From positions 3,360,001 to 3,424,000 of the forward strand of contig OY730476.1 of the NCBI GenBank assembly GCA_963422735.1: a stretch of 64,000 nt of DNA, written 5' to 3'. How positions within the stretch are numbered: position 1 is the stretch's first letter; each line of letters begins with the position of its first letter. The stretch is from Candidatus Latescibacterota bacterium. Its GTDB lineage: Bacteria; Latescibacterota; UBA2968; UBA8231. A program made the position numbers and the translations under genes. The notes under the pieces are model-generated. The model did no database searches. It was not told where the DNA came from and saw only the letters and a list, made by a program, of their open reading frames with translations. Positions 26,823-55,781 of this stretch are shown here, in pieces.

Positions 26823-28196
26823 GTGGCCAAAAAGAACCGTTCCGCTTACGTCTGTCAGTCCTGCGGCCACAGTGCCGTGCGCTGGTTTGGGCGCTGTGTG
26901 GCCTGCGGCGAGTGGAACACCTGCGTCGAAGAGCGGTCCCAAGCACCCGACAGCCGACGCGAACATCTAACGGTGTCGCCCCGTTCCCAATTGCAGCCCA
27001 TTACCCAAGTCGATGACCAAGACCACGAGCGGCTGCAAATCGGCATCTCCGAGTTCGACAGAGTCTTGGGCGGCGGCATCATGCCCGGTTCGGTCGTCTT
27101 AGTCGGCGGCGATCCCGGCATCGGCAAATCGACGCTTCTGCTGCAGATGGCCGGACAGCTAGCGGCTTCTGATTTTCGCATCGCGTACATTTCCGCCGAG
27201 GAGTCGGCCGCGCAGATCCGCCTGCGCGCCGGGCGCTTAGGGGCGTTGTGCGAAAGCCTGCACGTGATGGCCGAGACCAGCCTCACGGCCATTCTCGATC
27301 AGTTACAATCCGCCGGCCCGCTGGCCATCATCATCGACTCGATCCAGACTATTTACATGCCCGAGCTGGAAAGCGCGCCCGGCAGCGTGACCCAAGTGCG
27401 CGAATGCGCTGCGCGGCTCGTCTATTTGGCCAAAGAGAGCGGCATTCCCACGTTTTTGGTGGGGCACGTGACAAAAGAGGGCACGGTCGCCGGGCCGCGG
27501 GTACTGGAGCACCTAGTCGATACCGTGCTCTATTTAGAGGGCGAGCGGCACCACCACTTCCGCATCCTGCGCGCCGCCAAAAATCGCTTTGGTTCGACCA
27601 ATGAGATCGGAATTTTTGAGATGCGGGACCAAGGGCTAATCGAGGTCGCCAACCCCTCCAAGATTCTGCTGGCCGAGCGCGCCGAGGGCGTGTCGGGTTC
27701 GGCCATCGTCTGTAGCATAGAAGGCACTCGGCCGCTCTTGATCGAAATTCAGGCCCTCGTCTCGCGCTCTAGTTTTGGTTATCCGCAGCGGGTCGCCACC
27801 GGCATCGACGCTAAGCGGCTCTCGATTATTATCGCGGTGCTCGAAAAGCGCTGCGGCCACGACCTATCGAGCGAGGACATTTTCGTCAATGTCGTAGGGG
27901 GTATTCGCCTCGACGAGCCGGCGGTGGATATGGGGGTAGGGCTGGCGATTGTATCGAGCTTCCGCAACAAGCCTATTGACGCGCAGACCGTGGCTATTGG
28001 CGAGATTGGGCTGGGGGGGGAGATCCGGCCGGTGAACCAGATTGACCGGCGGGTAGTCGAGGCGCGGAGTTTGGGGTTTGAGCAGTGTTTGGTGGCGCGG
28101 AGCAACCTACAGGGGTGGAAGCGGCCGGAGGGGATGGAGGTGGTTGGAGTGGGAGGGATGGAGGCGGCCGAAGCTCTCGCATTTGGCCCAAGCTAG
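26823..28196 (+). CDS. radA: DNA repair protein RadA/Sms
   Basis: N-terminal zinc finger, GDPGIGKS, KNRFG, GEIGLGGEIR. Confidence 0.96.
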   Translation: MAKKNRSAYVCQSCGHSAVRWFGRCVACGEWNTCVEERSQAPDSRREHLTVSPRSQLQPITQVDDQDHERLQIGISEFDRVLGGGIMPGSVVLVGGDPGIGKSTLLLQMAGQLAASDFRIAYISAEESAAQIRLRAGRLGALCESLHVMAETSLTAILDQLQSAGPLAIIIDSIQTIYMPELESAPGSVTQVRECAARLVYLAKESGIPTFLVGHVTKEGTVAGPRVLEHLVDTVLYLEGERHHHFRILRAAKNRFGSTNEIGIFEMRDQGLIEVANPSKILLAERAEGVSGSAIVCSIEGTRPLLIEIQALVSRSSFGYPQRVATGIDAKRLSIIIAVLEKRCGHDLSSEDIFVNVVGGIRLDEPAVDMGVGLAIVSSFRNKPIDAQTVAIGEIGLGGEIRPVNQIDRRVVEARSLGFEQCLVARSNLQGWKRPEGMEVVGVGGMEAAEALAFGPS

Positions 28197-28457: not shown

Positions 28458-29576
<1,119 letters not shown>

Positions 29577-34648: not shown

Positions 34649-34678
34649 TAAAAAAGCCCCTGATTTTTCAGGGGCTTA
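34649..34678 (-). terminator. Terminator downstream of the tRNA-Val 3' end
   Basis: AAGCCCCTGA-TTTT-TCAGGGGCTT hairpin with T tract on the minus strand. Confidence 0.7.
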
Positions 34679-34683
34679 GAAGA

Positions 34684-34734
34684 TGGTGGGCGATACTAGA
34701 CTTGAACTAGTGACCTCCTGCATGTCAAGCAGGC
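34684..34734 (-). mobile_element. Prophage att site: 3' 51 nt of tRNA-Val(GAC)
   Basis: GCCTGC-TTGACAT-GCAGG-AGGTCACTAGTTCAAGTCTAGTATCGCCCACCA; D-arm and 5' acceptor strand absent. Confidence 0.88.
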
Positions 34735-52611: not shown

Positions 52612-54948
52612 TTACGGACACCAAGATAGCCCTAGGTCGTTTAAGTCGTGCGACGGTATATCTTGCAACGCTTCTGGGATGCACCCCGTCAACTCGTTGC
52701 TGTTAAGGAATAGCCATTCTAGGTTTTGGAGTTGGCCTAGCTCCGCCGGGATCGAACCCGTCAACCCGTTGTAGCTAAGGTCTAGCCATTCTAGGTTTGG
52801 GAGTTGGCCTAGCTCCGCCGGGATCGAACCCGTCAACTCGTTGCCGTTAAGGAATAGCCATCCCAGGTTTGGGAGTTGGCCTAGCTCCGCCGGGATCGAA
52901 CCCGTCAACTCGTTGCTGTTAAGGAATAGCCATTCTAGGTTTTGGAGTTGGCCTAGCTCCGCCGGGATCGAACCCGTCAACCCGTTGTCTTCAAGGTCTA
53001 GCCATTCTAGGTTTGGGAGTTGGCCTAGCTCCGCCGGGATCGAACCCGTCAACCCGTTGCCGTTAAGGTCTAGCCGTTGCAGGTGTTGGAGTTGGCCTAG
53101 CTCCGCCGGGATCGAACCCGTCAACCCGTTGTCTTCAAGGTCTAGCCATTCTAGGTTTGGGAGTTGGCCTAGCTCCGCCGGGATCGAACCCGTCAACCCG
53201 TTGCCGTTAAGGTCTAGCCGTTGCAGGTGTTGGAGTTGGCCTAGCTCCGCCGGGATCGAACCCGTCAACTCGTTGCCGTTAAGGGATAGCCATCCCAGGT
53301 TTGGGAGTTGGCCTAGCTCCGCCGGGATCGAACCCGTCAACCCGTTGCCGTTAAGGTCTAGCGCTCCCAGGTTTTGGAGTTGGCCTAGCTCCGCCGGGAT
53401 CGAACCCGTCAACCCGTTGCCGTTAAGGTCTAGCGCTCCCAGGTTTTGGAGTTGGCCTAGCTCCGCCGGGATCGAACCCGTCAACTCGTTGCTGTTAAGG
53501 GATAGCCATTCTAGGTTTTGGAGTTGGCCTAGCTCCGCCGGGATCGAACCCGTCAACTCGTTGCTGTTAAGGAATAGCCATTCTAGGTTTTGGAGTTGGC
53601 CTAGCTCCGCCGGGATCGAACCCGTCAACTCGTTGCTGTTAAGGAATAGCCATTCTAGGTTTTGGAGTTGGCCTAGCTCCGCCGGGATCGAACCCGTCAA
53701 CCCGTTGACGCCAAGGGATAGCCGTTGCAGGTTTTGGAGTTGGCCTAGCTCCGCCGGGATCGAACCCGTCAACCCGTTGTCTTCAAGGTCTAGCCATTCT
53801 AGGTTTTGGAGTTGGCCTAGCTCCGCCGGGATCGAACCCGTCAACCCGTTGTCGAAGAGGGATAGGGTATCGACTCGCCCTTCGTCATCCGTAGTAACGC
53901 CATGCCATTGCTCAAGCGGTTCTGTGCTGAGCCAGTTGGTGTCGTTATTCCAGTTAGGGCCGCCGGTAGCCCAATAGAGCGCGACCAACACCGCCCGATC
54001 GGCAGCGGCAGCGGGACCTGTCAGCGGCAGCCCGATCCCCGCCGGCAGGGACGGATCGGACGGATCAACCACATAGGTGGCAATCAGATAGGCGTCGGTG
54101 AAATCAATCGCGTCATCGCCGTTCACATCGCCGAACCAGAGGTCGGGAACAGCCGCCGCCGGGTTAACGCTGTATATCGCCAGCATCAGCGCATCAACTA
54201 TATCTACCCGACCGTTGCCGTCCACATCGCCTAACAGCCCGCTGCTGAGCCGCTTTCCGCGTGGCAGCCGATCCGCCGCGTCCACGACCCACTCCACCGG
54301 AGCCATCCCCGTCCGCCACCGAAAGCTCGCGTCCACATACGGCACCAAGCCCGCACCGGCCACGGCCACGCCATACGTCCGCTCCACCGCTACCGGAGCC
54401 GGTGGCGGCGCCGCCCCCAAAGCCGCCGGAATCCCGGCCTGCCCATCGACCAGCACCATCCGCCCACTCGCGGCCAGCCCGCCGCTGCTGAGCCGATAGA
54501 GGTACACCCCGGCACCCACCGCACGACCGGCCGCATCCGTGCCGTCCCAACGTGCGGTGTGCGCTCCGGCCGGCTGGTGGGCATCCACTAACGAAGCCAC
54601 CTGTTGCCCCAGCAGGTTAAACACCTCTAGCCGTACGTAGCCCGCCGCCGGCAGTTGGTAGGGAATCCTCGTCGAAGGGTTAAATGGGTTCGGGTAATTC
54701 GGCCCCAGCACCAAGCCGTCCGGCGGCGCAGAGCCTGCGGACAAGGACGGCAACGACAGCGCGAAATGGCCGGCCTCGTCGGTGGTGGCCCCCACGGAGC
54801 GGCGCAGATCGGATAGGTCGAACAGCCGCACGTGGGCGGCCACCACCGGCTCGCCCGAAGGAAGGCGTACCCACCCTTCAACCAGCGGTTCGGCCAAGAC
54901 CCGAGCCGACAATGACAGCCCGACAAAAATGGCAAATAATACGTTCAT
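52612..54948 (-). CDS. Secreted leucine-rich repeat protein (FlgD/Ig-like + dockerin-like + LRR N-cap + 17 plant-type 24-aa LRRs)
   Basis: Signal peptide MNVLFAIFVGLSLSARVLA; PNYPNPFNPST...WDGTD...GVYLY; GDVDGNGRVDIVDA; DRAVLVALYWATGGPNW; LTGSIPAELGQL x16. Confidence 0.92.
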   Translation of the reverse strand: MNVLFAIFVGLSLSARVLAEPLVEGWVRLPSGEPVVAAHVRLFDLSDLRRSVGATTDEAGHFALSLPSLSAGSAPPDGLVLGPNYPNPFNPSTRIPYQLPAAGYVRLEVFNLLGQQVASLVDAHQPAGAHTARWDGTDAAGRAVGAGVYLYRLSSGGLAASGRMVLVDGQAGIPAALGAAPPPAPVAVERTYGVAVAGAGLVPYVDASFRWRTGMAPVEWVVDAADRLPRGKRLSSGLLGDVDGNGRVDIVDALMLAIYSVNPAAAVPDLWFGDVNGDDAIDFTDAYLIATYVVDPSDPSLPAGIGLPLTGPAAAADRAVLVALYWATGGPNWNNDTNWLSTEPLEQWHGVTTDDEGRVDTLSLFDNGLTGSIPAELGQLQNLEWLDLEDNGLTGSIPAELGQLQNLQRLSLGVNGLTGSIPAELGQLQNLEWLFLNSNELTGSIPAELGQLQNLEWLFLNSNELTGSIPAELGQLQNLEWLSLNSNELTGSIPAELGQLQNLGALDLNGNGLTGSIPAELGQLQNLGALDLNGNGLTGSIPAELGQLPNLGWLSLNGNELTGSIPAELGQLQHLQRLDLNGNGLTGSIPAELGQLPNLEWLDLEDNGLTGSIPAELGQLQHLQRLDLNGNGLTGSIPAELGQLPNLEWLDLEDNGLTGSIPAELGQLQNLEWLFLNSNELTGSIPAELGQLPNLGWLFLNGNELTGSIPAELGQLPNLEWLDLSYNGLTGSIPAELGQLQNLEWLFLNSNELTGCIPEALQDIPSHDLNDLGLSWCP
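52685..53870 (-). repeat. 72-bp coding tandem repeat array (LRR units)
   Basis: Invariant 38-mer GGAGTTGGCCTAGCTCCGCCGGGATCGAACCCGTCAAC every 72 bp from 52728 to 53808 (16 copies). Confidence 0.95.
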
Positions 54949-54949
54949 A

Positions 54950-54986
54950 GTTTCAATCCGCTCCCCTCGCCCAAGTGAGGGGAGAC
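54950..54986 (-). CRISPR. Solitary 37-nt CRISPR-repeat-like unit (no array)
   Basis: GTCTCCCCTC-ACTTGGGC-GAGGGGAG-CGGATTGAAAC: GT start, 8-bp hairpin, ATTGAAAC end. Confidence 0.75.
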
Positions 54987-55076
54987 AACACAAACGATAC
55001 AAAAAACGCCGACATGGAAACATCACTAATAGAGACATAGCTTGGCCCTTGATTATCTAATAGTTATATTTATTAC

Positions 55077-55334
55077 ATGTTCACGGTAACGGTAGCTAAG
55101 GAAGCAAGGCGGCAGCTCCGCACGATGCCAAACAACGTGGAGAGAACCATCATCAGCAAGATTGAGCAACTATCCGCCGACCCCTTCGCCGCGAACAACA
55201 ACGTCTCCGCGCTGAAGCAAGGCGCGGGATTTCGACTCCGAGTCGGCGATTGGCGGGTGCTGTATGTCCTGGATTCGGAAGCGAAAACCATTACGGTCGC
55301 CACCATTCTGCCACGTGGAGAAGCCTACCGATGA
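55077..55334 (+). CDS. RelE/ParE family toxin
   Basis: FRLRVGDWRVLY...I.PRGEAY. Confidence 0.9.
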   Translation: MFTVTVAKEARRQLRTMPNNVERTIISKIEQLSADPFAANNNVSALKQGAGFRLRVGDWRVLYVLDSEAKTITVATILPRGEAYR

Positions 55335-55699
55335 CCCGCACCCCTCAAATCATTACCTTAGCCGGTGAGGAATACGCTATTGTCCCTCGCGCCGAATACG
55401 ATGCACTATGCACTGTCGTTGACGAAGACGCTTTGGATGCCGCCATCATCCGACACATCCTCGAGGACCCCGATCAGGAACTCGTGCCCCTCTCTCTGGC
55501 CAAGCGCATGGCCGATGGGGAACATCCGGTCCGGGTATGGCGTGAGTATCGCGGCATGAAAGCCAGCCAACTAGCCACTGCCGCCCACATCGCGGCGTCT
55601 TACCTATCCGATATAGAGCACGAGAAAAAGCCCGGGTCGATCAAAGCTATGAAGCGCATCGCGGCGGCACTCAACCTCACGGTGGACGATTTGATTTAG
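55331..55699 (+). CDS. XRE-HTH antitoxin
   Basis: HPVRVWREYRGM...YLSDIE...VDDLI; overlaps toxin stop. Confidence 0.85.
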   Translation: MTRTPQIITLAGEEYAIVPRAEYDALCTVVDEDALDAAIIRHILEDPDQELVPLSLAKRMADGEHPVRVWREYRGMKASQLATAAHIAASYLSDIEHEKKPGSIKAMKRIAAALNLTVDDLI

Positions 55700-55781
55700 G
55701 TTCAAGCGGCCCCGACCACGCCACCCGGCCGACGATGCGGTCGTCACGGCTGACGGGGCGCGGCGAAACTCGTTGTCGGCG

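Follow-up and report, generated by a model that had tools for sequence, protein, structure and literature searches.

A solitary type I-C-family CRISPR repeat abuts the start codon of a prophage leucine-rich repeat gene in a Latescibacterota bacterium

A 64,000-nucleotide (nt) stretch of contig OY730476.1 from Candidatus Latescibacterota bacterium (assembly GCA_963422735.1, positions 3,360,001 to 3,424,000 of the forward strand), referred to here as the window, carries on its minus strand a single 37-nt unit of the CRISPR type, which ends 1 nt before the start codon of a prophage gene for a large leucine-rich repeat (LRR) protein. This solitary repeat unit (SRU), SRU A, is a genuine and intact copy of the native type I-C CRISPR repeat of the genus, apparently a recent one, and is probably not only a phage anti-CRISPR but one case of a lineage-wide architecture consisting of a repeat, 0-1 nt, and a start codon. 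The reading tentatively preferred here is that SRU A is a repeat-derived 5′ leader, cleavable by the endoribonuclease Cas5d and acting in cis, because abutment of start codons recurs in the sense orientation at unrelated loci. Solitary CRISPR repeats in phages are already known as candidate RNA anti-CRISPRs. The present case differs in that a repeat forms the entire leader of a protein-coding gene, that the same design occurs at the end of a native array, and that it is fixed before core genes across species, including those in which the cognate nuclease was not found. The host genome (4.95 Mb) is denoted G000 and its relatives carry other G-numbers; the repeat family was surveyed in 41 genomes, the host and 40 relatives, and Cas proteins were sought in 31 genomes of the genus.

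On the minus strand SRU A reads GTCTCCCCTCACTTGGGCGAGGGGAGCGGATTGAAAC from 54986 to 54950, followed by one T and by the ATG at 54948-54946. An earlier note, made by a model from the letters of the window, had described a 37-nt unit with an 8-bp stem placed 1 nt before an ATG, and that description holds; its range, 54946-54990, takes in the unit and the start codon. Eight Watson-Crick pairs join CTCCCCTC to GAGGGGAG, leaving a single-stranded tail, CGGATTGAAAC, of 11 nt when counted by hand after the 8-bp stem and of 10 nt in RNAfold, which adds a G-C pair closing over a bulge. The hairpin is predicted to form in a 111-nt RNA around the unit (-36.9 kcal/mol, z = -2.63, with 3 of 200 shuffles equally good), and the unit folded by itself gives -16.2 kcal/mol, near the -17.6 to -18.8 kcal/mol of array repeats. 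At up to three mismatches, the window contains one copy of the unit (none expected from 100 shuffles) and the whole genome also contains one. SRU A is thus not part of a CRISPR array in the window: it is the single copy within three mismatches, and the nearest relic lies about 715 nt away. The statement that there is no neighboring repeat stands at that level of similarity and has to be amended for more divergent copies, which include a second unit at 29508-29542 on the plus strand and the degenerate remnant about 715 nt upstream. SRU A is intergenic, has no partial repeat within 100 bp, and lies on a mobile element, the placement by which SRUFinder (PMC10651486) recognizes such units.

The class 1 repeat architecture proposed for the unit is borne out, and its match in sequence and structure to arrays of the genus places it in the type I-C family. 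Two arrays are present in the host genome. Array A1 consists of 14 repeats of a different 37-nt repeat, also ending in ATTGAAAC, and belongs to a complete type III-B locus encoding Cmr2/Cas10, Cmr3, Cmr4, Cmr5, a Cmr6-Cmr1 fusion, a Csm6-type HEPN protein, Cas1, Cas2, and Cas6. Array A2, 245 kb from SRU A, has four repeats, GTCTCCCCTTGCTTCGGTAAGGGGAGCGGATTGAAAC, directly after genes for a WYL regulator, Cas3, and Cas5c/Cas5d (TIGR01876, 116.6 bits against a cut-off of 85). SRU A is identical to the A2 repeat at 32 of 37 positions and to the arrays of G006, G046, and G018 at 33 of 37. All differences fall in positions 10-20, within the loop and inner stem, and the outer stem and 11-nt tail are identical; the innermost stem pair varies in step, being T-A in A2, T-G in G006 and G046, and C-G in SRU A and G018. 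In type I-C systems, CRISPR RNA (crRNA) processed by Cas5d carries an 11-nt 5′ handle, and SRU A shares with type I-C repeats, as in the genus family, the initial GT, the G+C-rich hairpin, and a tail of exactly 11 nt ending in ATTGAAAC. Classic I-C repeats are about 32 nt long, whereas SRU A has 37 nt, is solitary, and has a gene in the place of a spacer.

The wider survey supports this assignment. Repeat-family matches were found in 26 of the 41 genomes, and the arrays at the loci examined comprise 70 repeats in G018, 41 in G046, 43 in G006, and 27 in G043. The G018 array adjoins cas3-cas5-cas8c-cas7-cas4-cas1, a full row read in this genome only; G046 has strong matches to Cas5d and Cas8c, and G006 and G043 have weak ones. 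Cas5d was found in 9 of the 31 genus genomes and Cas8c in 8, each count including the two weak cases. Comparison with the host's own repeats and cas genes, which had been proposed as a check, therefore gives family repeats in A2 beside Cas5d as well as in arrays across the genus. Covariance model R1 of SRU A recovers nine copies in the host genome at E ≤ 8.7e-9, namely the four A2 repeats and five solitary units. Nine copies in 4.95 Mb, four of them in one array, with most solitary loci of the genus upstream of starts and in the sense orientation, do not resemble the very numerous repetitive extragenic palindromic (REP)-like elements, placed without regard to gene starts, that would have spoken against the idea.

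Arrays of the exact SRU A variant exist, because contigs from two public sequencing runs show a repeat-spacer-repeat structure with no differences from SRU A, over 37 nt in run X6 and 34 nt in run X7, with spacers of 36 and 34 nt, respectively. The contigs of X7, a run guessed to be RNA, break at the repeat, and their coverage carries no information on transcripts. The host genome has no array of this variant, and an exact-pattern scan with a 24-mer specific to SRU A gave nothing in the species-representative metagenome and genome collections. Set against the SRUFinder rule of at least 90% identity and coverage, SRU A reaches 86-89% with arrays in assembled genomes and 100% over 37 nt with the X6 contig.

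The start of the LRR gene is placed at 54948 because the same ATG-AAC (MN...AEPL) opens its paralogues in both G009 and G013. These paralogues have ordinary upstream regions, including in G009 an AAGGAG 7 nt before the ATG, and SRU A appears to have replaced the native leader and ribosome-binding site of the gene. The sequence between the hairpin and the ATG is CGGATTGAAACT only, and the 3′ arm contains the GGAG-type Shine-Dalgarno sequence, which the earlier note had also placed inside the stem. Together, the comparison of paralogue starts and the 1-nt gap support the proposal that the unit is the 5′ untranslated region of the LRR gene. The AT-rich tract reported beside the unit is also real, the 90 nt upstream (54987-55076) having 33% G+C compared with 60% for the window. 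In the 300 nt upstream of SRU A, of the other solitary units of the host (B, D, E, and F), and of five units from G007 and G012, nothing was found in common with conserved array leaders or among the units themselves. A predicted fold of 54939-55000 on the minus strand pairs AUGAACGUAU, comprising the start codon and 7 nt, with GUA-CGUUUGU just 5′ of SRU A, enclosing the repeat hairpin; this AUG-region pairing might be freed by a cut, which would weakly fit a start released by cleavage. Each genome in the genus has dozens of paralogues of the LRR protein's N-terminal domain, at about 70% identity, and the gene therefore looks host-derived. A look upstream of homologous LRR genes, proposed as a check, gave no second case: none of these many paralogues has the unit in the alignment. 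The coding sequence also contains, at 52700-53900, about 16 near-identical 72-nt tandem units (LTGSIPAELGQLQNLEWL...) that a naive CRISPR finder flags.

Placement of family units directly before start codons is not confined to the prophage. In the host, units B and E lie in a proteasome operon (Table 1), whose gene names (lepB, mpa, UBact/Pup-like, and prcB) were assigned from translations by eye rather than by family search. The unit before the proteasome ATPase gene mpa is present in 11 of 16 genomes with solitary units listed (G000, G002, G007, G009, G011, G012, G013, G019, G020, G021, and G041) and was not found in the other five of those examined (G003, G005, G010, G022, and G044). The mpa start is either an ATG directly after the unit (...GAAAT followed by ATG AAC CGC AGG GAA TCG) or an in-frame TTG inside the tail with the same residues. 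At the prcB junction, 27 of 30 loci examined have both anchors; 20 of these consist of a stop, about 6 nt, and a start with no unit, and seven have the unit (G000, G009, G011, G005, G041, G013, and G007). Five of the seven (G009, G005, G007, G041, and G013) have a single nucleotide between unit and ATG, reading ...GGATTGAAAC-G-ATG or a close variant; in G000 and G011 the tail is repeated over a further 9 nt (GATGGAAAC), which brings in an in-frame ATG. Such 9-nt tandem tail copies are visible at some unit sites, and no target duplication pattern was established.

Further cases involve other genes and another size class of repeat. Only in G007, a SurA/PpiC-like lipoprotein gene has a unit 1 nt ahead of its ATG, an 81-amino-acid open reading frame (ORF) has one 0 nt ahead, and pdxS and aceE have units 16-17 nt ahead. 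Among relatives, 22 of 25 align with the SurA-like gene from exactly the T before the ATG, and a terminator-like hairpin with TTTT lies upstream in all 10 inspected. For both prcB and the SurA-like gene, homology in genomes lacking the unit resumes exactly at position -1 of the ATG. Shorter units of the classic I-C type (about 30 nt) also abut starts: two of them, 15 nt apart, abut the GTG of a second flavoprotein gene (VNVPNHDILIVGGGGAG) in G012, G019, G020, and G041, and a single one precedes a small ORF in G003, G005, G010, G011, G012, and G022. Unit D has another position, inside the recA ORF (28458-29576) after the RecA_C domain, with counterparts in G013 (three tandem GATTGAAAC copies) and G019; it is translated as part of the C-terminal tail of RecA, ...CFEGERIET.... 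The units at prcB, mpa, and recA, those specific to G007, and the shorter classic-type units are all in the sense orientation. When each unit was folded separately, 25 of 30 kept a hairpin with a free tail of 9-11 nt, several of them pairing despite the loss of loop and inner-stem bases.

The same design is found where a native array ends. In G018 and G006, the large I-C array closes with a repeat set 1 nt before the ATG that opens a core flavoprotein gene (MS.EHHTVIIVGGGPAG); in G000 the distance from the last A2 repeat is 10 nt, and in G043 a bare GGATTGAAAC precedes the flavoprotein ATG. This core gene occurs in 29 of the 31 genus genomes, and those without the array share no upstream DNA, their homology starting only at the ATG. 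The flavoprotein gene is probably co-transcribed with the array, and its mRNA in G018 and G006 is probably in part a 3′ extension of the precursor crRNA, because there is no room for a promoter or terminator. Cutting of the last array repeat by Cas5d would then create the 5′ end of the flavoprotein mRNA in these two genomes. The junction offers a direct precedent in nature for using a repeat as a leader, and strengthens the idea of a Cas-operated switch at SRU A.

According to the cis-acting leader reading, the leader RNA of SRU A would form a Cas5d-type hairpin of 8 bp, after which come the 11-nt tail and the AUG. Cas5d, where present (the host keeps a cas5d gene), would bind this hairpin and cleave at the 3′ base, giving an mRNA with a 12-nt leader whose 5′ end lies at CGGAUUGAAAC and from which the GGAG-holding hairpin has been removed. 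Where Cas5d is absent, the hairpin leader would be translated as it is, as must be the case for mpa and prcB wherever genomes lack Cas nucleases. A titrating effect on Cas5d, in the manner of an RNA anti-CRISPR, would be a by-product on which selection could act in the phage. The host's retention of cas3, cas5d, four repeats, and the flavoprotein gene, though cas8c and cas7 were not found, is consistent with such a role. A more ambitious version, in which the type I-C repeat has been domesticated in the genus as a portable leader cassette and Cas5d doubles as an mRNA-maturation enzyme at the array-end gene, mpa, prcB, and the phage cargo, coupling expression to the CRISPR status of the cell, is considered rather doubtful.

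Several observations weigh against the leader reading. Seven genomes (G002, G009, G011, G012, G013, G019, and G020) keep the units at mpa, prcB, or both, and neither Cas5d nor Cas6 was found in them with the queries used, in genomes that are 77-95% complete; the Cas6 query was the host's own protein, which gave matches in 12 of the 31 genomes. G005, likewise without a Cas5d or Cas6 match, is 87% complete. The persistence of units in such genomes means that the genes behind them must be expressed without these enzymes, so that expression cannot depend on cleavage, and the hairpin may be no more than tolerated; by the same token, an architecture with the same placement at mpa and prcB is neither phage-specific nor generally Cas-dependent. 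Decaying units exist, for example at prcB in G005 and at mpa in G007, and the prcB stems of some species are decaying, those of G011 and G005 having mismatches, with z near 0. Where hairpins outlast loop deletions, palindrome slippage could account for it without selection. At SRU A itself, a scan restricted to sigma-70-type consensus sequences found no promoter or terminator on the minus strand, and the Cas5d of the host is truncated. Counts of "independent" loci, moreover, rest on related genomes and on ORF starts chosen by eye.

The host I-C locus at A2 is a stump that remained when a deletion joined cas5 to the array, because the end of Cas5d is read from the first repeat and neither Cas8c (family search) nor Cas7 (G018 protein as query) was found in the host genome. 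The host Cas5d is 88% identical to that of G018 over residues 1-250, and the first A2 repeat encodes its 12 C-terminal residues; the G018 protein has 267 residues, of which the host version has lost about the last 17 through the fusion. The earlier suggestion that LRR expression is tied to host CRISPR activity is weakened accordingly, the I-C locus keeping only cas3, the array-fused cas5d, and four repeats. The statement that no cas gene lies in the window is upheld: genus-wide searches for Cas5d, Cas8c, and Cas6 gave no match there, and the nearest cas genes lie 245 kb away.

The strongest competitor, judged unlikely, is a dedicated RNA anti-CRISPR (Racr), in which the prophage unit mimics host I-C repeats and its transcript sequesters Cas5d, with Cas7, in dead-end complexes, the fusion to the LRR gene being incidental co-transcription. 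Published biology fits this proposal: a survey reports 2,103 viral SRUs, 83% of them matching the host subtype (Camara-Wilpert et al. 2023, PMC10651486), and the same source describes processing of crRNA by Cas5 in type I-C and a I-C Racr, RacrIC1, co-transcribed with AcrIC5 (PMC10651486). SRU A resembles these elements in being a single prophage repeat away from cas genes, in matching the host subtype, in keeping its hairpin, and in its possible co-transcription with a protein gene (PMC10651486). It is also full length with stem and tail intact, the X6 and X7 contigs point to living arrays with an identical repeat, and of the four IMG/VR contigs that contain the exact 17-mer, three have solitary family units with a hairpin. 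It differs, however, in being fused 1 nt before a start codon as the sole leader of a large cargo gene, with no terminator of its own. Moreover, the cognate host system is a stump whose interference genes were not found, which leaves a Racr no present target, and same-family units occur at housekeeping loci that have no anti-CRISPR logic. Six arrays (two in G000 and four in relatives) supplied 193 spacers, of which none matches the prophage, the matches to the G000 genome being of at most 21 nt (E ≥ 0.001). No known acr family was seen among the neighboring ORFs in a check that used no Acr library, and the identity to assembled-genome arrays falls short of the 90% in the SRUFinder rule. The Racr proposal of the earlier note therefore keeps its support from prophage location and family match and loses ground where units of the same family and placement serve mpa and prcB in genomes in which Cas5d and Cas6 were not found.

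An inert scar is a rather improbable alternative. SRU A would then derive from recombination of the phage, or of the donor of the LRR gene, with a CRISPR array, or would be what is left, as its last repeat, of a mini-array that collapsed around the adjoining toxin-antitoxin cassette, and its GGAG and spacing would still allow translation. The ParE/RelE-helix-turn-helix (HTH) cassette at 55077-55699 is 82-85% identical to cassettes in other contexts in G043, G010, G021, and G002, and this homology stops at about 55021, short of SRU A. In G000 it is bracketed by a degenerate remnant and SRU A, both in the same orientation; in G002, G010, G012, and G022, a same-family unit abuts the stop of the antitoxin gene on the opposite strand, and a site in G007, compared by eye without alignment, has the same left flank and unit with the cassette absent after it. 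Repeat units thus also appear to mark the borders of inserted DNA. The upstream regions of core genes in the genus break exactly at the ATG and some chromosomal units are visibly decaying, both in favor of a scar. Nevertheless, SRU A has a perfect stem and is itself identical to a living array variant, and abutment of start codons in the sense orientation at several unrelated loci is hard to obtain from random scars. If the units are inert, an unexplained process still places CRISPR repeats exactly at start codons, which bears on the movement of repeats and arrays.

Far less probable is a lone-repeat guide, in which the unit and the first approximately 35 nt of the gene would form a crRNA that turns a host I-C system on phages or alleles without the insert, as in homing or phage-phage conflict. 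The SurA-like site without a unit carries TTT just before the junction, but no consistent protospacer-adjacent motif emerges at unit-free sites, which have GCC or CCG at prcB and CA or TG at LRR paralogues. A scan for the gene's first 26 nt gave no exact match in the genome or viral collections and so no unit-free LRR allele; within the genome, neither flanking 36-mer has a second target (best 15 of 36, chance level). A chance hairpin, REP-like element, or terminator unrelated to CRISPR can be dismissed: its one point in favor is a sub-threshold Rfam match (CRISPR-DR9, RF01322, 18.8 bits against a gathering threshold of 45, E = 2.1), and it is contradicted by the 32-33 of 37 identity to arrays flanked by I-C cas genes, the R1 E value of 7.5e-16, the presence of only nine copies, and the lack of a U-tract.

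Insulation of operons by Csy4 is an engineered use of Cas-ribonuclease sites. The cis-acting leader reading of SRU A has a further synthetic likeness in 5′ DREDGE, described as placing a direct repeat in a 5′ untranslated region so that a Cas endoribonuclease cuts the leader and changes expression (PMC12191184). A limited literature search found no natural counterpart of such engineered 5′ sites, and it returned no description of CRISPR repeats fused to the start codons of core genes, the SRU lists of the Racr paper lying outside its scope. CreA, CreR, and crlRNA, which derive from degenerate mini-arrays, are likewise described as repeat-derived elements outside arrays that give Cas proteins a regulatory role (PMC8501985, 10.1101/2023.03.10.532045, 10.1101/2024.10.29.618823). 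As described in those reports, however, these RNAs are encoded beside cas genes and work in trans by means of a pseudo-spacer that matches a promoter, whereas SRU A lies 245 kb from the I-C stump, has flanks without a second target (best 15 nt, chance), and would act in cis. A guide of the crlRNA or CreA type was therefore rejected for SRU A, given the lack of a second target and of adjoining cas genes. If the units are processed, ordinary mRNAs would here be shaped by a Cas endoribonuclease in nature, and a solitary repeat in a phage would not by itself imply an anti-CRISPR.

Table 1. Coordinates of SRU A, the gene it precedes, related repeat units, and neighboring features (window positions unless marked as genome positions)
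Feature	Position	Strand	Detail
SRU A, solitary type I-C-family CRISPR repeat unit, 37 nt	54950-54986	-	R1 model 58 bits, E = 7.5e-16
SRU A 5′ arm	54984-54977	-	CTCCCCTC
SRU A loop, 8 nt	54976-54969	-	
SRU A 3′ arm	54968-54961	-	GAGGGGAG
SRU A single-stranded tail, 11 nt	54960-54950	-	CGGATTGAAAC
LRR gene, 778 amino acids: signal peptide, CarboxypepD_reg/FlgD_Ig-like N-terminal domain, dockerin, many LRRs	52612-54948	-	Pfam
AT-rich (33% G+C) divergent intergenic region between SRU A and ParE/RelE-type toxin gene	54987-55076	.	
ParE/RelE-like toxin	55077-55334	+	
HTH antitoxin	55331-55699	+	
Degenerate repeat remnant, GGCGTGGTCGGGGCCGCTTGAACC, abutting antitoxin stop, in SRU A orientation	~55699-55722	-	Local alignment to G022 unit
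Unit D, inside recA ORF, tail after RecA_C domain	29508-29542	+	52.6 bits
Unit B, between Pup/UBact-like gene and prcB; ATG overlaps end of unit	genome 1543592-1543628		
Unit E, between lepB stop and proteasome ATPase gene mpa	genome 1547180-1547216		
Unit F, intergenic	genome 2813603-2813639		
Host type I-C stump: WYL-WCX regulator, Cas3, Cas5d, four repeats	genome 3165112-3169447		
attL, 67-bp direct repeat	34668-34734	.	
Second 67-bp copy, overlapping tRNA-Val(GAC)	genome 3425806-3425872		1.8 kb past window end

The description of the LRR gene as prophage cargo is supported by an element of about 31.2 kb at tRNA-Val that contains both SRU A and the gene. PHROGs matches identify small and large terminase subunits, portal, major head, and tape measure proteins at 35.4-49.0 kb and RecT and a helicase at 59.5-63.2 kb. 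The LRR gene is flanked on one side by tail genes and on the other by a block comprising the ParE/RelE-HTH pair, a HigB-like toxin with an HTH protein, and an HTH repressor-like gene. Elsewhere in the host genome, outside the window, positions 27350-27650 are occupied by a long tract of the heptamers GGTTAGT and GGTCAGT.

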